The position numbers and the translations under genes are program-made. From the IMG/VR virus record IMGVR_UViG_3300043313_001992: a stretch of DNA of 35,573 nucleotides; one strand, written 5' to 3'. The notes under the pieces were generated by a model that was not told where the DNA came from, did not search any database, and saw only the letters and a list, made by a program, of their open reading frames with translations. Positions 5,071 to 34,699 of the stretch are shown one piece after another. Each line of letters starts with the position of its first letter. Within the stretch, counting starts at the first letter, position 1. This DNA comes from a virus.

Positions 5071-5192
5071 GGGCGGCGTCCTTTCAGTGGTGGTGGTTGC
5101 CAACGTTCCGGGGTGCGCGGCCACGTAGGCCGCCCCGCTGAGGTAGGTGACGCCGCCCCGGTGCCGCCCGCAGCAACAGCGGACGGGACGGT

Positions 5193-5444
5193 TCACGAGG
5201 CGACGTGGGCGTCGAGGTAGGCGTCGAGATCGCCGGGTCGGAGGCGGGTGCCGCCAGGAATCTGGATCGAGCGGAGCCTGCCGCTGTGGATCATCCGGTA
5301 CACGGTGCGGCGGGACACCTTGAGGTAGGCGGCCGCCTCGTTGACGGTCAGCACCGGGCGCCCGTCGTTGTGCTCGCGGGTGGCCTTGGTGGCCGCACGG
5401 CGCTCGTTGCGGTTGAGCGGAGGTAGCTGTGCGATGCGGGGCAT
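5193..5444 (-). CDS. excisionase-family (MerR-like HTH_17) DNA-binding protein; Cro/Xis-like early regulator
   Basis: 83 aa. LTVNEAAAYLKVSRRTVYRMIHSGRLRSIQIPG is the classic excisionase-type HTH. It is the first gene of the leftward replication operon and is divergent from the XRE gene. Confidence 0.8.
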   Translation of the reverse strand: MPRIAQLPPLNRNERRAATKATREHNDGRPVLTVNEAAAYLKVSRRTVYRMIHSGRLRSIQIPGGTRLRPGDLDAYLDAHVAS

Positions 5445-5663
5445 GGCGTCACCGTTTCACGCGATGTAACTGGTGACAAGGTGGCAATTCGCGTGCCACG
5501 TGGTGCCTGGGCGTGCCCTGAATGTGCGCTATGTGACACGCCGGGTGTTGCCGCACCGCGGTCACCCCGCTACGGTCGATCAGCAACCGGGGCCTTCGTG
5601 CCCCGCTCGACCGTCCGGGGGGTGGTTGCAACGTGTGGCACCTAGTGGCACAGTGGTCGGCAC
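5445..5663. promoter_or_regulatory. divergent switch region with GTGGCA/TGCCAC repeats
   Basis: 219-bp non-coding gap between divergent HTH genes. It contains the perfect inverted repeat GTGGCA-N7-TGCCAC (5481-5499), direct GTGGCA copies at 5635-5640 and 5645-5650, GTGACAC at 5533-5539, and a GTCGATCA half-site at 5575-5582. Confidence 0.6.
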
Positions 5664-6077
5664 ATGGACACCGATGCAGACACCGTCCCGGCGTACATGC
5701 GCCGACGCCGACACCAGCTGCGGCTCTCCCAGGAGAAGGCCGCTGGGGCGGCAGGGATCTCCCGGCGCGTGTGGTCCGAGATCGAGTTGGGTCAGCGCCG
5801 GGGCAGCGACGAATCGCTGGCCCGCATCGAGCGGGCGCTCGACGTGCCCGCCGGGTCGCTGATCGCCCTCGGTGCCCCGCCCCCGAAGGACGAGGAACTC
5901 GCCTCGATCCGTCGGGAGCTGGTCAAGATGATCCGGCAGCTCACCACCAGGGGGGAACTGGAGGGGGCGCTGGTCGATGTGTCCAAGCGACGGCTGGCGG
6001 CGTTGCAGGCCCGTATCGAGCAATTCGAGGACACCGCCGATGACCCGTCAACCGAGGATCACCGTCACACCGGTTGA
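5664..6077 (+). CDS. XRE-family (Cro/CI-type) HTH transcriptional regulator, candidate immunity repressor
   Basis: 137 aa. RRRRHQLRLSQEKAAGAAGISRRVWSEIELGQR is a typical HTH_3 motif, followed by a C-terminal coiled-coil-like region. Confidence 0.85.
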   Translation: MDTDADTVPAYMRRRRHQLRLSQEKAAGAAGISRRVWSEIELGQRRGSDESLARIERALDVPAGSLIALGAPPPKDEELASIRRELVKMIRQLTTRGELEGALVDVSKRRLAALQARIEQFEDTADDPSTEDHRHTG

Positions 6078-6186
6078 TCAGCTGGTCGCCCTCGCCCGCC
6101 TGGCGGGCCATCTTCTCAACGAGCGCCTTGCCGCCGGGGAAGGTGCCGCCCGGGACTCCCGCCCGAGCGGCACCACCCGGCCGGGC

Positions 6187-6202
6187 TGATAGCCGACTAT
6201 CA
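6187..6202. promoter_or_regulatory. boundary palindrome TGATAGCCGACTATCA
   Basis: Perfect 6-bp arms with a 4-bp spacer. Lies in the 152-nt gap after the XRE gene, 27 nt before the ATG at 6230. Confidence 0.7.
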
Positions 6203-6229
6203 ATACCCCAGCGAAACGGAGGCCGCTGA

Positions 6230-6514
6230 ATGGATGACGAGGACGTGTACGTGTTATCGGAGGACGGCGTCGAGCAGGCCCACGGCCTGATCGTAGACCT
6301 GTGGGTGGTCACCCTCGACCAGGGCAACGGTGAACGCATGGCCGCTTTCGACGCCGTCGCTCCCGACGGGTCCCAGGTGCCGTTCCTGTTGGTGACGTCC
6401 GAGCGCGAGGTGCTGGAGCGGATCGACTTCGAGGACATGGCCCGGCGGGAACAGGCAACCGTTCGGTTGCGTCACTTCCGGGCGTGCCACGACCAGGGCG
6501 AGTTCAAGCCGTGA
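6230..6514 (+). CDS. hypothetical protein
   Basis: 94 aa with high GC3. ACGGAGG lies 8 nt upstream of the ATG. Confidence 0.7.
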   Translation: MDDEDVYVLSEDGVEQAHGLIVDLWVVTLDQGNGERMAAFDAVAPDGSQVPFLLVTSEREVLERIDFEDMARREQATVRLRHFRACHDQGEFKP

Positions 6515-6531
6515 CCTACGAGGAGGAAGCC

Positions 6532-6891
6532 ATGGAATCCGAAGCCGCATCGAAACCGCAGGTGTTCGTCGCCGCCGCATGGGAGGGCAACCCCATGGAG
6601 TACGCCCACGGGCTCGTGAAGGCGGCCCGCTCGTTGCGGGCCATCGCCGACATCGTGCCCGTGCTGCCCGACATGCGCCTCGTGCCCGACGAGCCGGGGT
6701 TCGACCGGGTCGGTTGGGAGCGGGACCTGATCGCCCGGTCGGACGCCGTCGTGGTCATCGGCGGGCGGGACGTGCGCGACGACGTCGCCGGGGCCGAGGG
6801 CGTCGACCGGTGGCTGGCCGACGCCGAGGATTTCGGGGTGCTGGTGTTCGACGGGCCGGGGCCGCTGGTCGACTGGGTGATGACCCGGTGA
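6532..6891 (+). CDS. hypothetical protein (weak resemblance to nucleoside 2-deoxyribosyltransferase-like DUF4406 fold)
   Basis: 119 aa from the ATG at 6532, preceded by GAGGAGGAAG. VFVAAAW...SDAVVVIGG suggests a flavodoxin/Rossmann-like pattern. The functional guess is weak. Confidence 0.7.
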   Translation: MESEAASKPQVFVAAAWEGNPMEYAHGLVKAARSLRAIADIVPVLPDMRLVPDEPGFDRVGWERDLIARSDAVVVIGGRDVRDDVAGAEGVDRWLADAEDFGVLVFDGPGPLVDWVMTR

Positions 6892-7067
6892 CCGTCGACC
6901 ACGTTGCCTTGGAGGACGCCGTGCGCCGCCTGCTGGAGATCGACGAGCGGCGGGTGAGCATCGTCCGCTTCACCGGTCTGGACATCGCCGACGGCGTGCG
7001 CCTCACCCAGCCGATCATGGAGGACTACACCGCCGTGATCGCCGAGCTGCGGGAGCTGGTCGGGTGA
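6888..7067 (+). CDS. hypothetical protein
   Basis: 59 aa. GTG at 6888 forms a GTGA overlap with the preceding stop. GC3 is high. Confidence 0.5.
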   Translation: MTVDHVALEDAVRRLLEIDERRVSIVRFTGLDIADGVRLTQPIMEDYTAVIAELRELVG

Positions 7068-7540
7068 CCGGCACCAACCGGAAGGCTCACGTCGAGATCA
7101 CCGAGGACGACCCGCTCTTCCCGGTGACCGACCGGGTGAATTGGCCGTGGCCCCGTCATGTCCCCCGGGACTCGCGGGTGCTCCTCGCCCGCATCGCCTG
7201 GGACGTGCGCGAGCACGGCGACGTGGAGGGCCTCGACGCCGCCGCCGCCCTGCGTCGGCGGTTGCTGGCCCGTGGCGTGGAGGACCCCCGCAGGGCGATC
7301 CCGGCGGCTATCCGTAGCGCGGCCCGGTTCGACTTCGTGACGCTAGAAGGTCGATCCGACTCGTCCCGCCTCGGTGCGATCCGAACGACGTCGGCCACCC
7401 TGCCGCCGAATCCCTGGGTGCTGGAACGCCCGCCCGTCGTCGAGCCCGCCCCGGTGCTGCGGTCGGTGTCCGAGCCCGCCCCGGCGACCGAGGCGCCCCT
7501 GGAGCTACCGCAGGGCCGGGTGGTCGGGGCTGACCCGTGA
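7064..7540 (+). CDS. hypothetical protein
   Basis: 158 aa with a GTGA overlap at 7064-7067. Confidence 0.6.
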   Translation: MTGTNRKAHVEITEDDPLFPVTDRVNWPWPRHVPRDSRVLLARIAWDVREHGDVEGLDAAAALRRRLLARGVEDPRRAIPAAIRSAARFDFVTLEGRSDSSRLGAIRTTSATLPPNPWVLERPPVVEPAPVLRSVSEPAPATEAPLELPQGRVVGADP

Positions 7541-7559
7541 GCAACGGTTGCTGGCGATC

Positions 7560-7874
7560 ATGGACATGGCCGGGGCGGTCCTGATCGACGACCTCACGAC
7601 CGCCCCGGCCGCCCCCACCGACGAGGCGCTGGAGCGGCTAGCCGAGGCCCTCGCCGACAACGCCCGGTTGCGCAACGACCTGGAGGCCGAGCGCCGCCGT
7701 CGTCGTGACGCCGAGGGCGCCGCCGAGTCGGGGGCGAAGGCGTTGCGGGCCGAACGCAAACGGGCGCAGCTCGTGCAGGCGAACCTGGACGCCCTCGTGG
7801 CGGGCATCGCCAAGGGACCGGCACCACGGCCCAACGAGATCGCCCGCCTGATGCAGCAGCGGCCCGTCGGATGA
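7560..7874 (+). CDS. hypothetical coiled-coil protein
   Basis: 104 aa from the ATG at 7560. TTG at 7548 and ATG at 7566 are alternatives and no clear SD is present. Charged heptad-like region: RLRNDLEAERRRRRDAEGAAE. Confidence 0.5.
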   Translation: MDMAGAVLIDDLTTAPAAPTDEALERLAEALADNARLRNDLEAERRRRRDAEGAAESGAKALRAERKRAQLVQANLDALVAGIAKGPAPRPNEIARLMQQRPVG

Positions 7875-8194
7875 AGAGGGAACCGGCCCTGCCCCGTCGA
7901 CCTCGGGCGCCGTTCGGTCACCGCTACTGGGGGCCGTGCTGGGGGGTCCGCAAGTTGCCCGACGGGCGCGAGCTGGTGCTCCTGCCGTTGATCGGGCCGG
8001 TCACCCAGCTATCGGTGAGCTACGCCCGCGACGGCTTCTACGCCGACACCTGGCATTACGACCGCTTGGCCTGGGCGTGGGACGCCTTGTGCCGGTGGGA
8101 CGGGACGGGCGAACCGGAGCGCTGGTTCCGCCATCCGGCTACGGGGCGTCGGCGGCCGGGGGGCGACCCGGTCGCCGAATACGTGCAGCCGTGA
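7871..8194 (+). CDS. hypothetical protein
   Basis: 107 aa with an ATGA overlap at 7871-7874. Its TGA stop is the first arm of the palindromic motif at 8192-8206. Confidence 0.6.
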   Translation: MKREPALPRRPRAPFGHRYWGPCWGVRKLPDGRELVLLPLIGPVTQLSVSYARDGFYADTWHYDRLAWAWDALCRWDGTGEPERWFRHPATGRRRPGGDPVAEYVQP

Positions 8195-8206
8195 TAGGCG
8201 ACTATC
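8192..8206. promoter_or_regulatory. boundary palindrome TGATAGGCGACTATC
   Basis: Its TGA is the stop of 7871-8194. The int TAG stop (8202-8204, minus strand) lies in the other arm. Confidence 0.7.
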
Positions 8207-9347
8207 CGCCGAGGTAGCGCTCGATGTCCGGGGTCGTCACGTCGGCCACCGGGTGACCGTACGTGTGGATGATCTCGGCGGTGGTGGCGTGGCCCATGAG
8301 CTTGGCGAGGACCTCGTACGGCATGCCGTTGTGGCGGGCCACCGAGGCGAACGTGTGGCGGTAGCCGTTGGGCGTCACGTGCCCGACCCGTAGCGCCAGC
8401 GCCAGGTCCCGGGCGTAGACCCGCACGGCGTCGAAGCTCAGCCAGCCGTCGCCGTGCGGGCCGGGGCACACGAAGTCGCCCGTGGCGTGGCGCTGGAGGG
8501 CGGGCAACGCCAGGCGCAGGTCGGTGGCCAGCGGGACCGTCCGGTGGGCGTAGGCGTGACGGTGGTCGGTCTTGAGCACCGTCGAGTAGGTGCCCCGGTT
8601 GGCGGTGCGCCCCCGCTTGATCGTGCCCTCGACCCGTAGCGTCCCGGCGGCCAGGTCGACGTAGCGCCACTGGAGGCCCATGGCCTCGCCGGGTCGGAGC
8701 CCGCACAACATCATCAGCAGGAACAACCCGGCCAGCGGCCCGCCGTCGGCAACCAGATAGTTGCGCGCCAGCGTGAACCCGGCCAGGTCGTGGAACGTGC
8801 GCCGCACGGCGACCGGGGTGCTCGGTGGGACCCGGGCCGACCGCAGCTCGTCGAGCCGGTCCGGCGTGACGCACTTCCGGCGCCCGGCGTAGTCGAGGAT
8901 CATGCCCCAGTGGGTGCGGACCTTGGTCATCGAGGCCGGGCCGAGGCGCCGCCCGAGGGCGGTCCACATATCCTCGACGTCGCCGACGGTGGCGGTCATC
9001 AGGTCGGCGTCGATGCCGAGGCCCAGCATGATGTTGCGGGCCGACCACCGGTAGGCGATGTTCGTTTGCTCGGCGTGGCCCTGCTCCTGGAACTCCAGCC
9101 ACCCGGCCACCACGGCGGCGAGCGCGCTATCGCCCGCCAGGCTGGCCCGTACGTCGAGGTCCCGGCGGCGGCGGTCCCGGCGTATCTCGCACTCCTCGAA
9201 CGTGTCGCCCCGCTCGATGTGCGCCTGCCCGCCCCAACGGTGGCGCAACGTGACCTTGCCCCGGGCCTCGTCCCAGCCGAATGACCCCTGGCCCCGGGCG
9301 AGCTTGGGCAAGGTCGCCGGTCGCCGATGTGTGCCCATGTGTCCCAT
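8202..9347 (-). CDS. int: tyrosine integrase
   Basis: 381 aa. C-terminal catalytic pattern: LRPGEA...HRHAYAHRTVPL...NGYRHTFAS...LMGHATTAEIIHTYGH (R...HxxR...Y). The N-terminus resembles a SAM/arm-type domain. Confidence 0.9.
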   Translation of the reverse strand: MGHMGTHRRPATLPKLARGQGSFGWDEARGKVTLRHRWGGQAHIERGDTFEECEIRRDRRRRDLDVRASLAGDSALAAVVAGWLEFQEQGHAEQTNIAYRWSARNIMLGLGIDADLMTATVGDVEDMWTALGRRLGPASMTKVRTHWGMILDYAGRRKCVTPDRLDELRSARVPPSTPVAVRRTFHDLAGFTLARNYLVADGGPLAGLFLLMMLCGLRPGEAMGLQWRYVDLAAGTLRVEGTIKRGRTANRGTYSTVLKTDHRHAYAHRTVPLATDLRLALPALQRHATGDFVCPGPHGDGWLSFDAVRVYARDLALALRVGHVTPNGYRHTFASVARHNGMPYEVLAKLMGHATTAEIIHTYGHPVADVTTPDIERYLGG

Positions 9348-9599
9348 ACCCCCGCTCGATGTGTGCCCCGGTACAACACCGGGGTCACATCATGGCACAC
9401 CGAGGCCCTACCTGGCACACCCGTCATAGGCGCTGACCTGCGGGTTTACCTATATGCCCTGGTCAGCGAGCCGGGAATAGGGCCGTCAAATATCCTCTTC
9501 GTGGATTAGATACGTGTCCGTTGACCTGCGCTTATGGCTGTTTGGTACACCCGGCCGGTACAAGATAGGCGACTATCAGGGGCGCACTAGGCTCGCCCC
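9348..9599. other. candidate attP region
   Basis: Non-coding stretch next to int, with visibly lower GC around 9440-9545. Direct repeats: TGG(C/T)ACACC at 9392, 9412 and 9543; CCGGTACAA at 9367 and 9555; TGACCTGCG at 9433 and 9521. Hairpin CCCCGGT-acaac-ACCGGGG at 9365-9383. The core cannot be defined without a host sequence. Confidence 0.5.
9563..9578. promoter_or_regulatory. boundary palindrome AGATAGGCGACTATCA
   Basis: Same 14-mer (GATAGGCGACTATC) as at 8193-8206 and in the same orientation. Lies 22 nt upstream of the ATG at 9600. Confidence 0.7.
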
Positions 9600-9839
9600 A
9601 TGACACAGGACCGGGACGTGATCGTGGTGCGCCTGCCCCTGCGCTTCGAGGTGGTGCTCCGGGCGGTCAACGCGTTGGCCGTCGAGTTCCCCGAGGCGGC
9701 GTGGGTGGACGACCCCGAGGACCGGGGCGGGTTCGCCATCGACGTGACGTACCTACGGCTTGCGGGACCCGGCGATGGCGAAGGCGATGCAGGCGAGCCC
9801 GATGGCCAGCGCCCACAGGATGATGACGTGCGGCGGTAG
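9600..9839 (+). CDS. hypothetical protein next to attP
   Basis: 79 aa. GC3 is high for about the first 55 codons and then decays where it overlaps the convergent minus-strand peptide gene. No SD. The palindromic motif lies 22 nt upstream. Confidence 0.45.
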   Translation: MTQDRDVIVVRLPLRFEVVLRAVNALAVEFPEAAWVDDPEDRGGFAIDVTYLRLAGPGDGEGDAGEPDGQRPQDDDVRR

Positions 9840-9848
9840 GTCGATCAT
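9753..9848 (-). CDS. 31-aa single-pass membrane peptide
   Basis: [31 protein letters not shown]. Its ATG overlaps the tail-fibre stop (TGATG). GC3 is nearly 100%. One hydrophobic helix is followed by a basic end. Confidence 0.5.
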   Translation of the reverse strand: MIDLPPHVIILWALAIGLACIAFAIAGSRKP

Positions 9849-10717
9849 CAGAACCAGGTCCCCGACTCGACGGGCTTCCAGCCGGTGGTGCCGGTGCCGG
9901 TGTCCTTGCGCCACAGCGACGTGTTCGTCGTGTTGTTGAGCTGGCTGTAGACCGAGCCGACGGTGGCGGCGACCACCCCCTCGGGCGAGCCGTTGCCCGA
10001 GGTCCAGGTGACCCCGGCCGGTGCGCCCGATGGACCGGCCGGTCCTTGGACGCCCTGCGGTCCTTGGATGCCCTGCGGGCCGGGCACGGTCGAGGCCGCA
10101 CCCGTCGCTCCCGTGTCGCCCTTCGGCCCCTGGCTTCCGGTGGGTCCAGCGGGTCCCGTCGGGCCGGGCACGGTCGAGGCCGGGCCGGTGGGACCCGCTG
10201 GACCCGGCACGGTCGAGGCCGCACCCGTCGCCCCGGTGTCGCCCTTCGGCCCCTGGCTTCCCGTCGCCCCGGTGGGGCCAGCGGGTCCCGTCGGGCCGGG
10301 CACGGTCGAGGCCGGTCCGGTGGGACCGGCCGGGCCGGGCACGGTCGAGTCGGCGCCGGGCGGGCCGGGTGGCCCCGTCGGCCCGGGGAAGCCTCGGGCG
10401 CCCTCGGCACCCGGCTCGCCGGGCGGGCCTTGCGGCCCGGCGGGGCCACGCCCGGTTTCGAGCGTGATGGCGGCCAGGGCTCCGGGCGTCAGCGTGGAGG
10501 CCGCCGCTGGGTGGATGTCGACGGTGATGGCGCCGGTCGTCGTCGAGTCCAGGTGCGTGTCGCCGTCGGGCTCGATGTCGAGCGTGAGGGCGGCGACCGG
10601 GACGGCCGGGAGGTCGACGGTGATGACGGCCGTCGTGGCGTGCTCGGTGGCCGCCGGGTCGAGGTCGACGGTGATCGCCGTGGCGGGGTCGGCGGGCAGG
10701 TCGACGGTGTAGCTCAC
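9848..10717 (-). CDS. collagen-like repeat tail fibre protein
   Basis: 289 aa from the GTG at 10717 (GTGA overlap with the upstream stop). It contains a long (G-X-Y)n tract ([31 protein letters not shown]...) and a C-terminal globular domain ending [12 protein letters not shown]. Confidence 0.85.
10082..10336. repeat. tandem 123/132-nt duplication inside the collagen-like tract
   Basis: ggcacggtcgaggccgcacccgtcgc recurs at 10083 and 10206, and a third unit starts at 10337. The units encode [27 protein letters not shown](ATG)[14 protein letters not shown] twice. Confidence 0.85.
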
Positions 10718-11112
10718 GGCTCGCCGGGCTCGTTGCTGACGTCGCGGTCGATGCGCAGGGCGTCGAAGATGATCGGCGTTCGCTTGGTCGGGGTCAGCTG
10801 CTCGATGTCGGCGACGAAGCCGTGCTGCCACATCTGGGTCTGGTCCGGGGTCCACTTGGCCAGCAGGACGCACGGCGTCGAGCCGGGGGCGTCAGGGAAC
10901 AGGGCCGGTAGCGCGTCGGGCGTGGTCACCGAGAAGTCCTCGCACTCGTTGACGAGGGCGCCGTCGATGCGGTCGCGGACGTAGCTGCGGAACGTCCAGG
11001 CGGTGATGTCCTGGTCGGTGCCGCCGATGCGGATGCGGACGACCATCGTGGCCGGATCGCCACGCACCTGCGGCTCGGCGCCCGGTGGAGGGAACTGGGT
11101 GTGTGCGGCCAT
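10714..11112 (-). CDS. hypothetical tail-module protein
   Basis: 132 aa. GGGAGCG lies upstream of the ATG at 11112. The gene sits between a minor tail gene and the fibre gene. Confidence 0.65.
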
Positions 11113-11128
11113 GGTGGGTCGCTCCCGG

Positions 11129-11923
11129 CTAGTAGGGGGTGACGGTGATGGCGCCCGCCCACAGGATCGTCATGCTGTAGCCGCCGCTGCCCACGGTGGC
11201 CCGGAGCCCGTAGTAGAACGATCCGGCGGTGGTCATGCGGAACCGGCCTCGGAGCGAACCCTCTACGGGCAGGTTGCTCGCCGCCGGGGTCCCTTGTTTT
11301 GCCAGGAAGGCCGAGCTGCCGAAGTCCAGGGCCGGGCCGAGGGTGGCCTTCTCGGGATAGAACTGCACGATCTGGCCCCCCGCCTGGGCGGTTTCAGGGG
11401 TGGCCCGGATGTCGAGGGCCACCTCGACTATGGCGGGCATGTCGATCTTGAACGGGCCGATGTTGTCATAGAGCTGATTGGAGCCGGTGGCGACGACGGT
11501 GGGGCCGCCGGTCGTCCAGTGCGGGGCGGGGGTGATCATCGCCGTGGTGCTCACCCGTAGGTCGGTGAGTACGCCGCCGACGGTCTTGGCGATGGGCAGC
11601 TCCCACACCCCGGTCGGGCTCTGCGCCGGGACCGACACGCCGTCACGCCACAGCAGCTCGGCGGTGTTGGCGGCCGGGTCGAAGCGGACGACGGCGAGCC
11701 CGTTGGTCGTGGCGGTGAGCACCTGGCTGCTGGCCAGCTCGGCGTAGTGGCCGTCAACCCAGGCGGCGCCGGGCTGGATCGTGAGGTTTGGGTAGGCGAG
11801 CGTGGGCGTCATGTTGCCGGCGATGCCCGACGGCGCCCACAGCCGTCCCATCTTGCGCCACCGGGCCTCGGAGGCGACGGAGCCGTCGGCGCCATCGGTC
11901 GGCCATACGGACATCGCGACCAT
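11129..11923 (-). CDS. minor tail protein
   Basis: 264 aa. The N-terminal SEARWRKMGRLW...GI motif is typical of actinophage minor tail proteins. Position is within the tail-tip block. Confidence 0.7.
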   Translation of the reverse strand: MVAMSVWPTDGADGSVASEARWRKMGRLWAPSGIAGNMTPTLAYPNLTIQPGAAWVDGHYAELASSQVLTATTNGLAVVRFDPAANTAELLWRDGVSVPAQSPTGVWELPIAKTVGGVLTDLRVSTTAMITPAPHWTTGGPTVVATGSNQLYDNIGPFKIDMPAIVEVALDIRATPETAQAGGQIVQFYPEKATLGPALDFGSSAFLAKQGTPAASNLPVEGSLRGRFRMTTAGSFYYGLRATVGSGGYSMTILWAGAITVTPY

Positions 11924-26164: not shown

Positions 26165-27373
26165 CTAACCAGGCGCCGTGAAATCGTGCGGTACCCCGGT
26201 GGCCTCGTTGACGGGCTCGACGCCCGTGGCCTCCTGCCACCGCCGGGCGATAACGTCGACGTAGCGGGGGTCCAGCTCGACGAGGCGGGCCGTGCGGCCG
26301 GTCTGGTGCGCCGCTATCAGGGTCGAGCCGGACCCGGCGTAGGGGTCGAGCACGGTGCAGGCGTCGGGCGCCCAGCGGGTCAGGATCTCGGCCAGGAGGC
26401 GGGTCGGCTTCTGGGTGGGGTGCATCCGGTGGGCGGCCTCGGCCCCGCCGAACGCCCCGAACCAGTAGCAGCGCAGCAGGTCCCGCTTGTGGCGCTGGGC
26501 CGACCAGATCAGCTCGAAGCCCGAGCCGAAGCCGGGGTCGCTTGACTCGGTGCGCTTGTCCCACACCAGCCACGATCCGTCGAGGTCGTCGGCGGTGAGG
26601 GTGCGCCGGTAGTAGTCGGCCCCGAACCAGAACTGCTCGCGCACGTCGGCGGCATAGGCGCGCAGAATCGAGGCGTCATAGGGCCGGTCGTCGTGGAGGA
26701 CGGGCCGGTAGTTGCCGCCGGGGGTGCCCCGCAGGATCGCCTTCGACGATCCACCGATGCCCGACCAGTCGGTGTCCAGGTTCATGCCGTAGGGCGGGTC
26801 CGTCAGGAGGCATCCGATACGGGCGCCGCCCACCGCCCGGTCGAGGACCGTCGCGTCGGCCGAGTCGCCGCACATCAGCCGGTGCGGGCCGAGGCGCCAC
26901 ATGTCGCCCAGGGCGGTGATGGCGGGGGCGGTGGCCGGGGTGTTGTCGCCGTCGGTCGGTGGGGGTGTCAGGCGGGCCAGCAGGTCGTCGAGGTCGGTGG
27001 CGGCGAACGAGGCGGCGGCGAGCAGCGTGGGGTCGGCGGCGTTGACCTCGGTGAGTAGGTCGAGTAGCGCCTGCTCGTCGTAGGTGCCCAGCTCGCTGGT
27101 CCGGTTGTCGGCCAGAGCGAACGCCTTGGCCGTCGCTTCGTCGGCGTCGGTGCGGACCACGGCCAGCTCGGTCCAGCCCAGCTGTCGTGCTGCCAGGAAG
27201 GTGTGGTTGCCCGCGATGATCGTGCCGTCGAGGCGGGCCACGATGGGCTTGAGCTGGCCGAAGCGTTCGAGGCTGCGGGCCACGGCGTCGACGTCGCCCC
27301 GTCTCGGGTTGCCCGGTAGCTGGTGCAGGTCGTCCAGCTGGGTGGCCAGCGGCAGCAGGTTGTCGGCGATCAC
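26165..27373 (-). CDS. ParB-like nuclease domain / DNA N6- or N4-methyltransferase fusion (copy 1)
   Basis: 402 aa from the GTG at 27373 (GTGA overlap). ParB-domain motif: LPGNPRRGDVDAVARSLERFGQLKPIV...GNHTFLAA. Motif IV is TDPPYG and motif I is VLDPYAGSGST (beta-class order). Confidence 0.85.
   Translation of the reverse strand: MIADNLLPLATQLDDLHQLPGNPRRGDVDAVARSLERFGQLKPIVARLDGTIIAGNHTFLAARQLGWTELAVVRTDADEATAKAFALADNRTSELGTYDEQALLDLLTEVNAADPTLLAAASFAATDLDDLLARLTPPPTDGDNTPATAPAITALGDMWRLGPHRLMCGDSADATVLDRAVGGARIGCLLTDPPYGMNLDTDWSGIGGSSKAILRGTPGGNYRPVLHDDRPYDASILRAYAADVREQFWFGADYYRRTLTADDLDGSWLVWDKRTESSDPGFGSGFELIWSAQRHKRDLLRCYWFGAFGGAEAAHRMHPTQKPTRLLAEILTRWAPDACTVLDPYAGSGSTLIAAHQTGRTARLVELDPRYVDVIARRWQEATGVEPVNEATGVPHDFTAPG
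26957..27373. repeat. 417-bp near-identical direct repeat, unit A (5' ParB-domain part of methyltransferase 1)
   Basis: Aligns with 28183-28599 at a constant offset of 1226 bp with only scattered mismatches. The antisense ORF translations given at 27084 and 28310 are identical for 73 residues. Confidence 0.85.
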
Positions 27374-28599
27374 GGCGTGCCCTTGGTGAAGTCGTGCGCC
27401 GCACCGGTGGCCTCGTGGATCGGCTCGAAGCCGGTCGCCTCCTGCCAGCGACGAGCGATCACGTCGCAGTAGCGGGGGTCGAGCTCGATGAGCCGGGCGG
27501 TGCGGCCGGTCTGGTGGGCGGCGATCAGGGTGGTGCCCGACCCGGCGAAAGGGTCGAGCACGACGGCGCCGGGCTTCGTGTGGTTGGCCACGGCCCGCTC
27601 GACGAGCGCGACGGGCTTCATCGTTGGGTGGTCCTTGGAGGCGGCGGGCCGGGCGAACTCCCAGACCGAATCCTGGGTGCGGTCCGGCACCGGGTGGTGC
27701 GGGCCGCCCGGTGCCCAGCCGAAGAACAGCGCTTCGTGGCGGTAGTGGTAGTCGCTGTGGCCCATCACCAGGGAGTTCTTCACCCACGCCAGGGTCTGGC
27801 GCCAGATCCCCAGGTCGTCGAGCGCCTCAACGAAGCAACGCATGGCCGGACCTAGGGGCGCCGTCACGAACCAGACGGCGCCGGGGTGGCAGCAGGCCAG
27901 GGTCGCCAGGAAGGCGGCGCTCAGCAGCGCCTTGGTCTGGTCGGCGTCGAGGGCGTCGTTGTCGATGGTCAGGGCGTCGGCGGTCTTGCCGATGTAGTCC
28001 ACGCCGTAGGGCGGGTCGGTCCACACCAGGTCGGCCAGGCGGTCGCCCATCACCCGCTCCACGTCGGTGGTGACGGTGGCGTCACCGCAGAGCAGGCGGT
28101 GCGGCCCCAGGCGCCACACGTCGCCCTTGGTCGTGAAGGCCGGGGGTGCGGGCGGGACGTGGTCGGGGTCCAACAGCGGCGACGGTGGGGGCGTCAGGCG
28201 GGCCAGCAGGTCGTCGAGGTCGGTGGCGGCGAACGAGGCGGCGGCGAGCAGGGTGGGGTCGGCTTCGTTGACCTCGGTGAGCAGGTCCAGTAGCGCCTGC
28301 TCGTCGTAGGTGCCCAGCTCGCTGGTCCGGTTGTCGGCCAGAGCGAACGCCTTGGCCGTCGCTTCGTCGGCGTCGGTGCGGACCACGGCCAGCTCGGTCC
28401 AGCCCAGCTGTCGTGCTGCCAGGAAGGTGTGGTTGCCCGCGATGATCGTGCCGTCGAGGCGGGCCACGATGGGCTTGAGCTGGCCGAAGCGTTCGAGGCT
28501 GCGGGCCACCGCCTCGACGTCGCCCCGTCGGGGGTTGCCCGGTAGTAGGTGCAGGTCGTCGAGCGGGGTGGCGAGCGGTAGGAGGTTGTCGGCGATCAC
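27370..28599 (-). CDS. ParB-like nuclease domain / DNA N6- or N4-methyltransferase fusion (copy 2)
   Basis: 409 aa from the GTG at 28599 (GTGA overlap with the HNH stop). It has the same ParB N-domain, TDPPYG, HPTMKP and VLDPFAGSGTT, but its central region differs from copy 1. Confidence 0.85.
   Translation of the reverse strand: MIADNLLPLATPLDDLHLLPGNPRRGDVEAVARSLERFGQLKPIVARLDGTIIAGNHTFLAARQLGWTELAVVRTDADEATAKAFALADNRTSELGTYDEQALLDLLTEVNEADPTLLAAASFAATDLDDLLARLTPPPSPLLDPDHVPPAPPAFTTKGDVWRLGPHRLLCGDATVTTDVERVMGDRLADLVWTDPPYGVDYIGKTADALTIDNDALDADQTKALLSAAFLATLACCHPGAVWFVTAPLGPAMRCFVEALDDLGIWRQTLAWVKNSLVMGHSDYHYRHEALFFGWAPGGPHHPVPDRTQDSVWEFARPAASKDHPTMKPVALVERAVANHTKPGAVVLDPFAGSGTTLIAAHQTGRTARLIELDPRYCDVIARRWQEATGFEPIHEATGAAHDFTKGTP
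28183..28599. repeat. 417-bp near-identical direct repeat, unit B (5' ParB-domain part of methyltransferase 2)
   Basis: See unit A. Confidence 0.85.
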
Positions 28600-28871
28600 C
28601 AGGACCTCGATGGTGGTGGGGGTGTGCGCACCGTGGGGTGGCGCAGCTCGGCGGCGATCATCTTGCCCTGGTGTTTCTGGCAGGGCAGGCATGCCGGGCG
28701 CAACACGCAACACCCCGACCCGGGGACGTGGTTGTGGAGCGCCAGCGGTGGGTGATGGTCCGCGCTGTTGGCCTTGGTCCCGTCGCACACGATGCGCAAC
28801 ACGCACGGCAGGCCCAGCGCCAGGAGGCGGGCACGTGCTCGCTGGTACGCCCGGTCGTAGGGGTCGGCCAC
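28596..28871 (-). CDS. HNH endonuclease (packaging-associated)
   Basis: 91 aa. CVLRIVCDG...ADHHPPLALHNH...LRPACLPCQKHQG fits the Cys4 + H-N-H pattern. It is the first gene of the terminase operon. Confidence 0.8.
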   Translation of the reverse strand: MADPYDRAYQRARARLLALGLPCVLRIVCDGTKANSADHHPPLALHNHVPGSGCCVLRPACLPCQKHQGKMIAAELRHPTVRTPPPPSRSW

Positions 28872-28888
28872 GCCGCCGAGGGTAGCGG

Positions 28889-28904
28889 TGATAGACGTCG
28901 ATCA
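28889..28904. promoter_or_regulatory. boundary motif TGATAGACGTCGATCA
   Basis: Lies 18 nt upstream of the HNH start and abuts the cos-like block. Confidence 0.7.
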
Positions 28905-28907
28905 CGG

Positions 28908-30637: not shown

Positions 30638-30853
30638 TCAGGCCGGGGCGTCGTCGTCGTCCCGCTGGACCTGCTGGCGGGCCTGCTCCTTCTGCTGCTC
30701 GAGCGTTGGCGGGCGCTCGGGCTGGTCGGGATCAGCCTGGGCCTGGTCGGGATCGGCCTGGACTACGTCCGACAGGGCGTCGGGTTGCGGCTCGGGCTCG
30801 TTCGGGTCATTTGTGGGGTTATCGCTCATGTCCGGGAACGATACGACCGTCAT
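30638..30853 (-). CDS. hypothetical acidic low-complexity protein
   Basis: 71 aa (or 63 aa from the ATG at 30829). It is Asp/Pro/Gln-rich with a repeated ADPDQ(A/P) unit and has no TM segment. Confidence 0.5.
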   Translation of the reverse strand: MTVVSFPDMSDNPTNDPNEPEPQPDALSDVVQADPDQAQADPDQPERPPTLEQQKEQARQQVQRDDDDAPA

Positions 30854-30871: not shown

Positions 30872-31033
30872 TCAGCCCAGATAGGCGCGGATAGCGGCGA
30901 CCACCGTCTCCTGAAGGCTCGAATCGTCGGTTGCTGCCCGGATGCGCAGCTCCCGGTGCAGGTCGGCGTCGATGGCGATGTTGATCCGCTTGACGGCGGG
31001 GGCGGACGGCGGGGGCGGAGTGCGTTTCGGCAT
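30872..31033 (-). CDS. ribbon-helix-helix (CopG/Arc-like) DNA-binding protein
   Basis: 53 aa. KRINIAIDADLHRELRIRAATDDSSLQETVVAAIRAYLG has a beta-strand/helix/helix pattern. It forms the 3' end of a 605-aa shadow ORF. TATTGT lies 6 nt upstream of the ATG, which is leaderless geometry. Confidence 0.7.
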   Translation of the reverse strand: MPKRTPPPPSAPAVKRINIAIDADLHRELRIRAATDDSSLQETVVAAIRAYLG

Positions 31034-31195
31034 GGCGCCACAATATCGCACATCGCGACGTTGTGACACCCTTGAGCGATTTGTGTCACGAGGAATCTTT
31101 GATAGAAGTGTTAGGTAACTATCATCGCTGGTCGATACTATGGCTGTGCCAGCGCCATCGGGGCGAGGGCCGTCACCACCAGGAGCCAACCAGCC
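31034..31195. promoter_or_regulatory. divergent control region (RHH gene vs rightward AAA+/VWA operon)
   Basis: TTGTGACAC (31061-31069) and TTGTGTCAC (31081-31089) are mutually inverted and 20 bp apart. The region also contains the split motif TGATAG-N13-CTATCA (31100-31124), AAGTGTTAGG (31106-31115), and GTCGATACTAT (31131-31141), which shares CGATACT with the island promoters. Confidence 0.6.
31100..31124. promoter_or_regulatory. split version TGATAG-N13-CTATCA
   Basis: Same arms as the 16-bp motif, but with AAGTGTTAGGTAA inserted between them. Lies in the RHH/rightward-operon control region. Confidence 0.5.
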
Positions 31196-31909
31196 ATGAG
31201 CACGACCCCCACCACCACGCCCTCGGACGTCATCGAGGCCATGCGCTCGATCCAGACCGAGTCCGACCGCTGGCGCTTGGCCGAGGCGCTCGCCGCCCGC
31301 ATCCCGTCGGGCGACAAGGGGCTCGACGAGATCGTCGACGCCGCCGCCGCCGCCGGGGTCCTCGGCAAGCTGTCCAAGACCACCCTGCGCCTCTACCGCG
31401 ACGCCGCCAACCGCTGGCCCGCCGACAAGCGGGTCGCCAACGTGTCCTTCTCGGCCCACCGCGAGGCCATGGTGCTCGACAACATCAACGAGGCGGCCCG
31501 CATGCTCGGCTCGCTGGTCAAGTCCAGCGGCGGCGCCGACAAGGTCACGGTCGCCTCGGTGCGCCGGGCGGTCGCCGTCAAGCGGGGCACGGTGCCCGCA
31601 GAGAAGGCCACCGCCAACGGGTCGGCGGCGACCACCAAGGCCCCGGCGCTCGACGTGCTCACCGACCTGCAGGCCGGGGCACCGCAGCTGATCGCCGCCA
31701 TCCCCAACGCCACGGCGCCCACCGAGCTCGACCGGCTCCACGCCGGGCTGTCCAAGGCGCTGGCCCACGTCGAGCGCCTCCAGGCCAAGGCCGCCCAGGC
31801 CGCCCGCAAGAAGGCCGCCGCACCCAAGCGCACGGCGCCCAAGGCCGCCGCCCGCAAGGCCGCCGCCACGCCGCGGCGCAAGGCCGTCGGCGACCTGCGC
31901 GGCGAGTGA
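31196..31909 (+). CDS. hypothetical DNA-binding-like protein with Ala/Lys/Pro-rich histone-H1-like C-terminal tail
   Basis: 237 aa. AGGAG lies upstream of the ATG. The C-terminus (KAAQAARKKAAAPKRTAPKAAARKAAATPRRKA) resembles the basic tails of actinobacterial HU/Hlp proteins. Confidence 0.7.
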   Translation: MSTTPTTTPSDVIEAMRSIQTESDRWRLAEALAARIPSGDKGLDEIVDAAAAAGVLGKLSKTTLRLYRDAANRWPADKRVANVSFSAHREAMVLDNINEAARMLGSLVKSSGGADKVTVASVRRAVAVKRGTVPAEKATANGSAATTKAPALDVLTDLQAGAPQLIAAIPNATAPTELDRLHAGLSKALAHVERLQAKAAQAARKKAAAPKRTAPKAAARKAAATPRRKAVGDLRGE

Positions 31910-31939
31910 AGCCCCCACCCACGACCACCGGAGGAACCG

Positions 31940-32824
31940 ATGAACGTTGCCACCACCACACCCAGCTTTGACCTGGCGACCGTGCCCGAGGCCGACCGCG
32001 GCCGGGTCGCCGCCCTGATCCCCAGCCCCCGCATCGCCGAGGCCTACGTGCATCGGTCCTTCAACGGCCGGACCGACTTCGACCTGCTCGACTACGCCGT
32101 CGCCGAGATGGAAAACGTCATCCTGGCGGGGCCGACCGGGTCGGCCAAGACCACCTTCTTCCGGGCCTACGCCGCCGCCCGGGGGCTGCCGTTCTGCGTA
32201 GTCGAGTGCTCGGGCGCCATCGACCTCGGCATGGTGCTGGGCAAGACCACCATCGACCCCGACGGCGGCGTCCGGTGGATCGACGGCGAGATGACGCTGG
32301 TGGCCCGCTACGGCGGCGTCGTGCTGATCGACGAGATCAACATGGCGCACCCCCGCATCACGGCCGGGTTCCACCAGTTGCTGGCGGTCACCCGGCGCAT
32401 GAGCATCCCCGAGGCGGGCGAGACGATCATCGCCGGGCGGGGCGGCACCGGGGCGGCGCAACCGACGCTGTTCGGGGCGGCGTACAACCCCCGCTACCAG
32501 GGCACGGTGCGGCTGAGCGAGGCCCTGCAGAACCGCTACGCCATCCCGCTGAAGTGGGGATACGAGCGGGACGTCGAGGCGCAGCTGGTGACCTCGGAGC
32601 GGCTGCTCGACATGGCCGACAACATCCGGGCGCTCGACGAGATCCGCACGCCGCTGTCCACCAACGCCCTCATGGAATTCGAGCGCCACGTCGACGGGCT
32701 GGGCATGGACACCGCCCGCATGCTCCTGGTCAACCGCTTCGCCCCCGAGGAACAGGCGCCGGTCGCCCGGGCGCTCGAGGCCAACGCCGATGCCATCCAG
32801 GCCGAACTGGACGCAGCCGAATGA
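31940..32824 (+). CDS. MoxR-class AAA+ ATPase (AAA_5; CbbQ/NorQ/CobS-like)
   Basis: 294 aa. GGAGGAA lies before the ATG. Walker A is GPTGSAKTT and Walker B is VVLIDEINMAHP. Single AAA module of CbbQ/NorQ size. Confidence 0.85.
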   Translation: MNVATTTPSFDLATVPEADRGRVAALIPSPRIAEAYVHRSFNGRTDFDLLDYAVAEMENVILAGPTGSAKTTFFRAYAAARGLPFCVVECSGAIDLGMVLGKTTIDPDGGVRWIDGEMTLVARYGGVVLIDEINMAHPRITAGFHQLLAVTRRMSIPEAGETIIAGRGGTGAAQPTLFGAAYNPRYQGTVRLSEALQNRYAIPLKWGYERDVEAQLVTSERLLDMADNIRALDEIRTPLSTNALMEFERHVDGLGMDTARMLLVNRFAPEEQAPVARALEANADAIQAELDAAE

Positions 32825-32833
32825 GCGAGCATT

Positions 32834-32849
32834 TGATAGTCAGCTATCA
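32834..32849. promoter_or_regulatory. boundary palindrome TGATAGTCAGCTATCA
   Basis: Lies in the 99-nt gap between the AAA+ and VWA genes. It is followed by AGTGTTAGG and GTCGATAAG, as in the 31100 region. Confidence 0.7.
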
Positions 32850-32923
32850 AGTGTTAGGACTAAGATGTCGATAAGTGCAGTGGCTCGCCCCACCGGGGGC
32901 GGGCGAGACCCAGGAGGGCCAGA

Positions 32924-34699
32924 ATGGATCCAGCGAGGCGGGGCACGACCGAGGTCAAGCTGCTCCACACTCAGCTCACCCCCCAGCAGCTGGTGCGGCT
33001 GTCTCGCCTTGGCCGCGAGCTACGCCTGACCGACCAGATCCTGTCGGATGACCTGGACACCGTCAGCATCGTGGACGGCGGCCCCGCCCCGGCGTGGACG
33101 TCGCTGGCGGGCGACCACGTCAGCTACGCCCTCGACCGCATGCCGCTGCCCGAAACGAAGCTCGACGTGGCGGTCTGGCTGGGCACCAACGCCCACGAGT
33201 TGGGCCACGTGCTCTTCAGCCCCCGGAGCGGCTCGGCGCTCATGACCCGGCTGGCCGAGGCCGAGCGGGTCCACCTGCGGGGCATCGCCGACCTGCACAA
33301 CATCGCCGAGGACCAGCGCCAGGAACGGCTGATCCTGGCCCGCTTCGCTCCCTGGCGCGCCTACCTGACCGCGGCCCTCGGGCACCACATCGTCGTGGGC
33401 GACGCCCACGCCTGGTTGCTGCTGGCGGGCCGCACGTGGCTACCTGACGCCGTACGGGCGCAGGCCCGGCGCCTCTTCGCCGACACCTACGACGAGCCTT
33501 CGGCCATCCGGGTGGCCGAGTTGATCGGCGACTATCAGCGGCTCGTCGATCCTGGCGACACCGAGGCCCCCGAAGCGTTCGAGATCCTCGAAGCGCTCCA
33601 CGACCTGTTCGCCTCGGTGCCGCCGCTGCGCTCACGTTGCCAACCGCTGGCCGAGGGCGAGCCTGACACCAGTGAGGCGGGCGGCCAGGCGCCACCCACC
33701 GCCGACGAGGCCGAGCCCGACGAGGGCGACGACGGCGCCGAGACGGGCGAGGGCGCCGAGGGCGACGCTCAGGACGGCCAGGAGGGCGCTGGGGCGGGCG
33801 AGACGGGTGCCAGCGAGTCGGGCGAGGGCGGCCAAGGCGAGGGCGCCCAGGAGGCGCCCAGCCGGGCGGCGCAGATCACCGCGGCGGCCGCCGAGCAGCT
33901 GGACGCCGCCGACGTCGCCGAGGACATCGCCGCGGTGCTCAACGCCATCGGAGGCGGCCGCGGCTCGGACCAGCCCGAGGGCGCCGACCGCCGGGGCACC
34001 CACGTCCTGGCCACCGACGCCGCCCGGCGCCTCCACCACGAGGTCGGCGACGCCCTGCTCGACCTGAAGGATGCCAACGAGCCCGGCTGGGTGCGCCGGG
34101 TCGACTCTGGGCGGTTGAACGTACGGCGCCTGGCCAACCCGCAGGTCAACGCCGACGAGCTCTTCGACCGCTTCGAACCCGGCCAGCTCGAGGCCAACGA
34201 GCTCGAGCTCGTGCTGCTGCTCGACGTCAGCGGGTCGATGAACGTCCAGCTGTGGGATCTGGCCGAGGTGACCTGGGCGATCCGCCACGCCGTCGACGAC
34301 CTCGAGGGCACCGCGACGGTCATCACCTGGGACGACGGGCCGCACCGCATCCTGGCGGCGCCCGGCGACCGGCCCGACGAGCGCATGTTCGTGCCAGGCT
34401 GCGGCGGCGGCACGAGGCCCACCAGCGCCTTGACCGAGGCCTACCGGTTGCTGTCGGGCTCGACCTGCCACAACCGGCTGATGGTGATCCTCACCGACGG
34501 GGCCTGGCACGGCATGTCGTACCAGTACGACCCGCTGATGGAGGCCATGAACGACGCCGGGATCGTGACGGTGTGCGGCCTGCTCGGCCCCAACGCCGGA
34601 ACCGACATCCACGGCTGCAGCTACGGCGAGCGCCTCGGCTCGCTGTCGGACCTCGCCCGGTTGTTCGGCCGGGTGGCAGCCGCCCGTATCGGAGCGTGA
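32924..34699 (+). CDS. von Willebrand factor A (VWA) domain protein with N-terminal HExxH motif and acidic linker (CobT/NorD/CbbO-like partner)
   Basis: 591 aa. AGGAGGG lies before the ATG. HELGH is at 33194-33208. A D/E/G-rich linker spans about 33650-33850. The MIDAS-type LLLDVSGSM starts at 34223, followed by VILTDGAWHG. Confidence 0.8.
   Translation: MDPARRGTTEVKLLHTQLTPQQLVRLSRLGRELRLTDQILSDDLDTVSIVDGGPAPAWTSLAGDHVSYALDRMPLPETKLDVAVWLGTNAHELGHVLFSPRSGSALMTRLAEAERVHLRGIADLHNIAEDQRQERLILARFAPWRAYLTAALGHHIVVGDAHAWLLLAGRTWLPDAVRAQARRLFADTYDEPSAIRVAELIGDYQRLVDPGDTEAPEAFEILEALHDLFASVPPLRSRCQPLAEGEPDTSEAGGQAPPTADEAEPDEGDDGAETGEGAEGDAQDGQEGAGAGETGASESGEGGQGEGAQEAPSRAAQITAAAAEQLDAADVAEDIAAVLNAIGGGRGSDQPEGADRRGTHVLATDAARRLHHEVGDALLDLKDANEPGWVRRVDSGRLNVRRLANPQVNADELFDRFEPGQLEANELELVLLLDVSGSMNVQLWDLAEVTWAIRHAVDDLEGTATVITWDDGPHRILAAPGDRPDERMFVPGCGGGTRPTSALTEAYRLLSGSTCHNRLMVILTDGAWHGMSYQYDPLMEAMNDAGIVTVCGLLGPNAGTDIHGCSYGERLGSLSDLARLFGRVAAARIGA
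33522..33537. promoter_or_regulatory. intragenic copy TGATCGGCGACTATCA
   Basis: Uses the TGATCG arm variant seen in the GACGTC subfamily. Lies inside the VWA CDS. Confidence 0.35.

Follow-up and report, generated by a model that had tools for sequence, protein, structure and literature searches.

An AAA+ ATPase, a VWA partner with a zincin-like domain and a clade-specific basic-tailed protein encoded together in a small temperate actinophage genome

Viral gene pairs encoding a MoxR-class AAA+ ATPase and a protein with a von Willebrand factor A (VWA) domain have been described twice under different readings. In group 2.2 jumbo phages, a MoxR ATPase accompanies a VWA domain fused to an N-terminal metallopeptidase, for which a role in virion assembly was proposed (Iyer et al. 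2021, PMC7824862), while a cobST cluster reported to be widespread in tailed bacterial and archaeal viruses and "misannotated as peptidase" was assigned a proposed cobaltochelatase role (Liu et al. 2021, PMC8651126). Published surveys also place viral cobST clusters in the core genomes of T4-like cyanophages and in haloarchaeal tailed viruses. Here we analyse a three-gene cassette at positions 31196-34699 of the IMG/VR virus record IMGVR_UViG_3300043313_001992 (35,573 nucleotides; this whole stretch is called the window below), which encodes a protein that we call P1, an ATPase and a VWA protein. Because the reports of Iyer et al. and Liu et al. already describe such pairs, the window pair belongs to a described kind and its novelty is modest; P1 is what is new. 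Compared with other viral pairs, this clade adds P1, a compact ATPase and a small temperate actinophage as host genome, as opposed to a jumbo phage, a T4-like phage or an archaeal virus. [quoted passage not shown]

The window pair agrees with the viral CobS/CobT-like pairs in having adjacent AAA and then VWA genes in a tailed-virus genome, in a partner whose zincin-like HExxH domain is joined by an acidic linker to a MIDAS-containing VWA domain (HExxH...NxxEDxRxE being found also in a Microcystis phage CobT), and in an N-domain fold like that of phage and haloarchaeal-virus CobT/VWFA proteins. The jumbo-phage proteins of Iyer et al. are likened to it by their described architecture. Three open reading frames (ORFs), with their coordinates and sequence motifs, had been claimed in an earlier note on this DNA and are all present; a Shine-Dalgarno sequence precedes each ORF, and all three frames have a G+C content at third codon positions of 0.92-0.95.

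The second gene of the cassette (31940..32824, + strand) encodes a 294-amino acid (aa) compact single-module AAA+ ATPase of the AAA_5 group, which takes in CbbQ, NorQ, midasin and CobS, as evidenced by Pfam, PHROG and profile comparisons with the PDB. The match to Pfam AAA_5 scores 59.7 bits (cut-off 22; expectation value, E, 4e-16), and a 16-sequence ATPase profile retrieved midasin (2e-107), CbbQ (1e-34), NorQ (1e-30), CobS (4e-16) and the MoxR-like protein 2r44 (1e-10) from the PDB. Walker A (GPTGSAKTT) lies at residues 64-72 (32129-32155) and Walker B (VVLIDEIN) at residues 127-134 (32318-32341), with N183 as sensor 1, R199 as arginine finger and R230 as sensor 2; across 16 ATPase relatives with identities down to 26%, G64, K70, T71, E132, N183, R199 and R230 show no or almost no variation. 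Judged by these motifs, the ATPase is a catalytically intact AAA_5/MoxR-class motor, in line with the MoxR/CbbQ/NorQ/CobS class assigned to it previously. NCBIfam models for CobS and CobT matched neither the ATPase nor the VWA protein at E<=0.1, and the ATPase is thus not a CobS equivalog.

The third gene (32924-34699) encodes the 591-aa VWA protein, in which a zincin-like N-domain is followed by an acidic disordered linker, a segment resembling a pore-inserting "shaft" and a VWA domain with a complete MIDAS; the AlphaFold model of the full-length protein has a predicted local distance difference test score (pLDDT) of 84. The Asp/Glu/Gly-rich linker (residues ~240-312; 33641..33859, + strand) is variable in length among homologues and has a pLDDT below 50 at residues 266-309; it is equivalent to the disordered linker of ~90 residues in Brucella CobT. 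Two helices (residues 314-344) and the shaft- or finger-like segment (residues ~345-425) follow at 33862..34198 (+), and W389, G396, R402 and D415 are invariant within the EPGWVRRVDSGRLNVRRL stretch of that segment. The best match of a family profile is to Brucella CobT (9uka_G, E 1.9e-6), covering the acidic linker, EPGWVRRVDSGRLNVRRL and the MIDAS in this order and including the Q373-R413 shaft, which enters the CobS pore in the CobSTN structure (preprint, bioRxiv 10.64898/2026.07.21.739949). The same profile matched the NorD sequence only weakly (E 0.059). Residues of the C-terminal VWA domain (34202..34699, +), delimited by Foldseek and alignment, form a MIDAS consisting of D434-x-S436-x-S438 (DVSGS, 34223-34237), T497 and D525, all five of which are invariant among 33 homologues with identities down to 31%. 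Foldseek ranks this domain closest to the VWA domain of NorD, as solved within NorQD complexes (9qhd_G, 1.3e-7), and to the MIDAS domain of midasin; the Pfam matches to VWA_CoxE and VWA_2 fall below their cut-offs, and phmmer searches with the VWA protein against PDB sequences returned nothing meaningful. Together, the models and the profile match spanning shaft and MIDAS bear out the CobT/NorD-type architecture suggested for the partner. NorQ/NorD and CbbQ/CbbO share with the phage pair the ATPase profile match, the phage VWA fold being closest to NorD, and since the NorD finger inserts in the NorQ pore and the linker is remodelled (NorQD complexes, 2026), a pore finger and linker remodelling may be expected for the phage pair as well.

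The N-domain (residues 1-230; 32924..33613, +) is identified as zincin-like by its AlphaFold2 model, Foldseek and motif conservation. The model (pLDDT 90.4) consists of a helix, three strands, the active-site helix with HExxH and seven more helices. HELGH occupies residues 91-95 (33194-33208), and NIAEDQRQE, at residues 126-134 (33299-33325), lies on the helix that is the candidate carrier of the third metal ligand; H91, E92, H95, N126, E129, D130, R132, E134 and R135 are invariant among the 33 homologues. Motif counts were made over 132 retrieved representatives of the family (50%-identity clusters), in which HExxH is present in 131, NxxEDxRxE follows 24-41 residues after HExxH in 122, and the DxSxS of the MIDAS is present in 118. 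The Foldseek matches of the N-domain in the PDB, though individually non-significant, are mostly zincins (archaemetzincin, Wss1, selecase, M1/M61 aminopeptidases, vibriolysin, MMP-7 and BepA), and among predicted viral structures (BFVD) its counterparts are the N-terminal parts of VWFA/CobT proteins from phages and haloarchaeal viruses, with E down to 8e-9. Searched against the PDB, an N-domain sequence profile gave only weak matches, which coincide with the helix bearing the active site in Wss1 and in an O-glycan protease. Ten diverse family members have VWA-type Pfam matches only, none of which covers the N-domain. DUF2201-type proteins resemble this arrangement in pairing a putative HExxH metallopeptidase and VWA-like domain with a MoxR ATPase, and the earlier note had pointed to the resemblance; the link is not supported, with no match to PF13203 (DUF2201_N) or PF09967 (VWA-like) in the window protein (E<=0.1) or in the 10 relatives (E<=0.01).

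The N-terminal domain of cellular CobT provides the closest comparison. CobT_N is peptidase-M48C-like and consists of a helix, a three-stranded sheet and eight helices (CobSTN preprint), and the domain order of Brucella CobT, in which an M48C-like N-domain precedes a disordered acidic linker, a pair of helices, the shaft and the MIDAS-bearing VWA domain, is the same as that of the phage protein as modelled. The Brucella protein was found among PDB sequences in a search started from a CobT sequence, and its N-terminal sequence reads RGLGDSMALRQARH...FDAVEQARVEAIG. An hhalign comparison of the two N-domains places MALRQ opposite HELGH and AVEQARVE opposite IAEDQRQE, in the expected register but with a non-significant E of 0.47, so that the case for homology rests on topology and context rather than on statistics; the N-domain profile, run against PDB sequences, did not retrieve CobT_N. 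At the level of motifs the AVEQARVE helix is similar to NIAEDQRQE of the phage protein, whereas genuine CobT has MALRQ where the phage protein has HELGH. As the topology of the model equals that of CobT_N, the phage protein appears to keep a catalytic motif lost in cellular CobT, and the simplest reading of the sequences is that viral proteins in general retain a catalytic zincin site that the cellular protein would have lost. The earlier note had set the phage N-domain apart from CobT by its zincin character; the motif does differ, but the domain itself is no add-on, sharing the topology of the M48C-like CobT_N. HExxH is real, conserved and absent from genuine CobT, and the pair is not a plain CobS/CobT devoid of it.

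These observations bear on the proposal of Liu et al. for viral cobST, in which the pair would act as viral cobaltochelatase subunits that dock on host CobN and boost cobalt insertion and cobalamin supply during infection. The ATPase matches PHROG 249 ("porphyrin biosynthesis", E 1.4e-26), partner proteins carry the SEA-PHAGES label "CobT-like", and the partner's best PDB sequence match, shaft included, is CobT itself, with an identical domain order. Set against this, neither the NCBIfam CobS and CobT models nor PF06213 (CobT N-terminal; searched at E<=0.1 for the window protein and E<=0.01 for 10 relatives) matched, the ATPase is far closer to CbbQ and NorQ than to CobS in the profile comparison given above, HExxH stands in 131 of 132 viral representatives at the place of MALRQ in Brucella CobT, and the cassette, with its co-conserved basic-tailed P1, takes up 10% of the genome and adjoins replication genes. 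No CobN-like gene was seen among the window ORFs examined. We thus rate a chelatase function as quite unlikely here, and the window pair is probably not a vitamin B12 gene. This matters beyond the window: cobalamin "auxiliary metabolic gene" is the label that the viral AAA-VWA family routinely receives, and since the zincin motif is kept in nearly all viral members and lost in CobT, that metabolic annotation is arguably wrong or incomplete.

Among solved structures the nearest relatives of the pair are NorQ/NorD and CobS/CobT, both of which insert metals, and a His-His-Glu site can bind a transferable metal. This could point to a chaperone for a phage or host metalloenzyme in which HExxH...E holds a metal for delivery, as NorQD acts with Fe and CobSTN with Co. 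The glutamate of HExxH, E92, is nevertheless invariant, although in zincins this residue is the general base rather than a ligand, and hydrolysis is favoured over simple metal binding for this reason. Nor is a candidate client metalloenzyme co-conserved across the phage contexts examined; the window genes scanned are phage genes, and neither cNOR nor a Rubisco client was seen among them. We regard metal delivery as very unlikely.

The AAA-VWA family is large and almost exclusively viral. At E<=1e-3 the N-domain profile retrieved 1,219 cluster representatives (50% identity) among 1.84 billion, and almost all full-length representatives are ~570-800 aa long. In the window, as in all 27 related loci examined, among them 22 of 22 from IMG/VR, the gene for the ATPase immediately precedes that for the VWA protein; P1 is directly upstream of the ATPase gene in all 13 close IMG/VR relatives and in L024, a 224-kb metagenomic scaffold (L numbers denote related loci). 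The same AAA-then-VWA order is found in Gordonia phage ScarletRaider (genes 72 and 73), L024 and a Microcystis phage (L028), as well as in three GTDB loci, belonging to a Nocardioides metagenome-assembled genome (MAG), Dermacoccus abyssi and a Thiotrichales MAG. These three loci came from the second of two scans, over 185,579 species genomes, the first, made with the N-domain, having found nothing; both used exact peptide patterns, and the rarity in cellular genomes is a lower-bound estimate. Close relatives in cultured phages are confined to 14 Gordonia and 2 Brevibacterium records, and when the cassette was compared with 50,697 phage records by megablast, nothing matched. Cultivable relatives include the Gordonia phages GMA6, Chidiebere and ScarletRaider. 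Since a tblastn search started from P0345, a distant member of the family, led back to those 16 Gordonia and Brevibacterium records, the link to cyanophage CobT was made by motif inspection and fold search: the Microcystis phage protein annotated as "CobT subunit of cobaltochelatase" contains HETLH, NCLEDVRIE and DMSDS. It carries the motifs of the family, which therefore includes the viral CobT of the literature.

The genomic setting of the cassette is informative with respect to its time of action. The window is a roughly complete temperate siphophage genome of ~35.6 kb and 70% GC, and is close to the whole element because an identical VWA protein sits on a 35,631-bp contig. Genes on the - strand encode a GH25 endolysin, a ParB-methyltransferase, the large terminase, portal, major capsid, tape measure and tail proteins, and further a tyrosine integrase, an exonuclease and a primase/polymerase. 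The cassette, ~10% of the 35.6-kb genome, is among the few + strand blocks; it diverges from a small ribbon-helix-helix (RHH) gene that heads the - strand lysis/late block and, if the genome is circular, converges with the end of the primase/polymerase operon. In Gordonia phages the pair lies between genes for a DnaB-like helicase and a single-stranded DNA-binding protein (SSB), in L011 a primase/polymerase gene immediately precedes the cassette on the same strand, and in L024 the order is serine integrase, helix-turn-helix (HTH) protein, D5 primase, RHH and then P1-AAA-VWA. Because the cassette repeatedly adjoins primase, helicase and integrase genes and, among the loci examined, never lies within a structural block, early or replication-related action is the most likely.

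The role proposed by Iyer et al. for jumbo phages would instead make the pair a MoxR-VWA chaperone and processing peptidase for virion assembly. The same architecture was given this role in group 2.2 jumbo phages, and a precedent exists in the MoxR/VWA pair needed for tail development of Acidianus two-tailed virus. The window cassette, however, lies outside the terminase-to-tail block (~9.7-25.7 kb) and on the other strand, the cassettes of L024, L011 and Gordonia phages lie among integrase, primase, helicase and SSB genes, and no structural-protein partner is co-conserved with the pair. On balance we find a function in virion assembly unlikely.

The position opposite the lytic genes, with its own control region beside the RHH gene, could also suit a VWA-MoxR conflict or defence system expressed in lysogeny and protecting the lysogen from other phages, a possibility raised in the earlier note. 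VWA-MoxR pairs are the cores of nucleoside triphosphate-dependent conflict systems common in actinobacteria, and the ATPase has a weak PADLOC match to mad8 (1e-5). Its match to bpMoxR is, in contrast, non-significant (E 0.07), and PADLOC returned no match for the VWA protein or P1. Conflict systems of this type need VMAP-type third components (VMAP, FtsH or beta-propeller) and effector fusions (Kaur et al. 2020), and no VMAP, iSTAND or effector component is found in the cassette, in which P1 is without a detectable domain and the VWA protein has only the zincin-like domain. Members of the family are also carried by large phages of Gordonia and Brevibacterium and by the Microcystis phage, with viral cobST in cyanophage core genomes and haloarchaeal tailed viruses, while the genes upstream of P1 are co-directional in most relatives and the pattern scan found only 3 matches in 185,579 species genomes. 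Together with the early/replication context, these findings speak against the defence reading, which we take to be highly improbable.

P1 (31196..31909, +; 237 aa) is the clade-specific part of the cassette, defined from 100 homologues, their alignment and the composition of its tail. A conserved domain at residues ~10-125 contains LRLYRDxAxRWPxxxRVxxVSFSAHRE, and the conserved LDxLHAGLxKALxHVExLRAKAA at residues ~155-200 reads as helical or coiled-coil. It is followed by a basic K/R/A/P-rich tail at residues 195-231 (31780-31888); residues 195-237 comprise 13 K/R, 16 A and 3 P with just 2 acidic residues, and this composition is kept in 20 of 20 homologues examined while the tail sequence drifts. 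The protein ends in the motif GDLRG(L/E) at 31889-31906 (clade consensus G[DN]LR[GD]L), which occurs once per locus and only at the P1 C-terminus (10 of 14 related loci and the window), and the Asp of G-D-L-R-G-L is the sole consistently conserved acidic residue of the tail. The basic tail that had been described as histone H1-like is real, the nucleoid remodelling proposed along with it being suggested by composition only. None of the 100 homologues has a Pfam domain; scans of 20 of them gave scattered single matches, and one to DUF6192 (E 0.026) was treated as noise. P1 has no PHROG match, phmmer against PDB sequences returned nothing meaningful, a P1 profile against the PDB produced coiled-coil noise only, and a profile of its N-domain run against 5.8 billion proteins found no relatives beyond the clade. 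P1 is undetectable in distant loci of the AAA-VWA family and is co-conserved solely in this clade of ~36-kb actinophages. It is an orphan helical domain with a basic tail.

Distant family ATPases carry varied N-terminal extensions, which the 294-aa ATPase of this clade does not have. By eye, the extensions are SH3/KOW-like in L015 (4223-5599) and L022 (4474-5718), and a GGRG-motif domain is common to those of L017 (1080-2549) and L021 (4425-5873). The Gordonia phage gp72 ATPase combines a basic stretch of Ala/Lys/Pro with a C-terminal tail that is acidic (L001 4694-5917 is among the loci with extensions), and just upstream in L020 (4157-4498) is what appears by eye to be a PC4/YdbC-type protein with a basic tail. 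The pair thus seems to be linked with accessory modules that vary, P1 being one of them; several are basic.

Based on the solved CobST and NorQD complexes, we posit that the ATPase would form a hexamer into whose pore the shaft of the VWA-domain protein inserts, and that ATP hydrolysis would pull or twist the acidic linker so that the N-domain moves relative to the VWA domain. Less securely, the MIDAS may capture an acidic residue of a target protein, which the zincin domain would then cleave, or in which it would hydrolyse another bond, making the complex comparable to a split FtsH-like AAA-metalloprotease with a VWA substrate receptor. FtsH-type AAA-zincin proteases likewise couple an AAA+ ring to an HExxH zinc peptidase, although the analogy is functional only: FtsH belongs to the classical AAA clade and not to AAA_5/MoxR, and the phage peptidase would reside on a separate VWA/shaft-tethered subunit without a membrane anchor. 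P1 could serve as an adaptor tethering the machine to DNA or as its dedicated substrate, with the Asp of its C-terminal G-D-L-R-G-L as the candidate MIDAS ligand. Such a machine would most likely work at an early stage, serving replication or the takeover of the host and not the assembly of virions or the synthesis of B12. In its boldest form, this proposal holds that viral "CobS/CobT" are no chelatase but a split ATP-dependent metalloprotease, in which a MoxR ring is combined with an active zincin and VWA/MIDAS serves as substrate receptor, and which here might be aimed at DNA-bound targets by P1 as a nucleoid-protein-like adaptor or substrate whose G-D-L-R-G-L would plug the MIDAS; taken as a whole, we consider this version unlikely. 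The compact three-gene actinophage version, with P1 as candidate substrate or adaptor, could make the target tractable.

Several points weigh against a MIDAS-targeted zincin machine. The best Foldseek match of the N-domain in the PDB reached only E 0.05, and no Pfam peptidase family was found for the N-domain in the window protein and 10 diverse relatives; what suggests peptidase activity is only the conservation of the motifs. It is also conceivable that HExxH...E binds a metal destined for delivery, by analogy with the related insertion machines, and as the partner's best sequence match is a genuine CobT, a chelatase-linked role may be possible. The interaction between P1 and the MIDAS is purely hypothetical, and P1, which distant members lack, cannot be essential to the core mechanism.

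The RHH gene directly upstream of P1 (30872..31033, -) encodes a small protein of 53 aa from an ATG at 31033 and is the first of the - strand lysis/late block. Its Pfam matches are weak (Omega_Repress and FitA-like RHH, both E 2e-3; RHH_10, E 9e-3), and the protein, KRINIAIDADLHRELRIRAA...SLQETVVAAIRAYL, fits a strand-helix-helix pattern. A divergent RHH gene is thus present as described earlier, with a start that is likelier at 31033 than at 31090, but the direct pairing with P1 recurs only in L024; in L005 an RHH-like gene lies ~1.3 kb further upstream of P1. A perfect 13-nt tandem duplication (GACGGCGGGGGCG x2, 30992-31017) inside the 5' part of the RHH ORF encodes a PPPPSAP stretch.

Between the two divergent genes lies an AT-richer control region (31034..31195) that contains GATAGAAGTGTTAGGTAACTATC at 31101-31123, the 10-mer AAGTGTTAGG at 31106-31115 and an inverted repeat, GTGACAC/GTGTCAC, at 31063-31089. 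The 10-mer has exactly two copies in the window (0.13 expected), one upstream of P1 (31106) and one upstream of the VWA gene (32849), both of which abut a GATAG/CTATC half-site of the palindrome GATAGNNNNCTATC (commonly GATAGACGTCGATC); half-sites and 10-mer are non-random. With up to one mismatch, this 14-bp palindrome has 14 sites in the genome against 0.11 expected (3571, 6188, 8193, 9564, 13903, 17874, 19933, 22236, 23810, 25618, 28890, 31110, 32835 and 33523), most of them at gene junctions and often just upstream of - strand start codons. The AAA-VWA intercistronic spacer (32825..32923) contains one of these sites as a perfect 18-bp palindrome, TTGATAGTCAGCTATCAA, at 32833-32850, followed by AAGTGTTAGG at 32849-32858, and may be an internal regulatory site or promoter. 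In relatives, GATAGNNNNCTATC is found in the AAA-VWA spacer of L003, L004, L008, L009 and L010 and upstream of P1 in L008 and L024. Operators of its own had been claimed for the cassette: the two AAGTGTTAGG copies, each abutting a GATAGNNNNCTATC half-site, support this in part, whereas the 7-nt inverted repeat (31063/31083) was rejected as an operator, being at chance level and unconserved in relatives. A scan for sigma-70 promoters and intrinsic terminators found nothing, its consensus being unsuited to a 70% GC actinophage. The GATAGNNNNCTATC sites recall repeats known from actinophages, the stoperators or those associated with gene starts, and a phage regulator may bind to them.

A conserved hairpin-like element, GCGGGCGCTCACC...loop...GGTGGGCGCACGATG followed by CC(A/C)GCATCC, lies 5' of P1 in L003 (~4120-4190), L006 (~1110-1190) and L012 (~4015-4090). 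The window lacks this element, which could represent a structured leader, an attenuator or a small RNA. Positions 3126-11575 of the 224-kb scaffold L024 form an integrated element with a large serine recombinase, HTH, D5_N primase, RHH (-), P1, AAA and VWA genes, host-like genes flank it on one side and no structural genes occur within 10 kb. Its VWA gene appears frameshifted near the 5' end, with the tblastn match split into 9796-9978 and 9980-11560, and the element might be satellite-like or decaying.

Two further ORFs of the window lie on the - strand close to the lysis genes. The one at 27370-28905, between the lysin and terminase genes, encodes a fusion of a ParB-like nuclease domain with a DNA methyltransferase (PHROG 498, E 2e-118), and the other, at 30638-30853 between the RHH and endolysin genes, encodes a strongly acidic Pro/Asp/Gln-rich protein of 71 aa with the short repeat DPDQAQADPDQPE.

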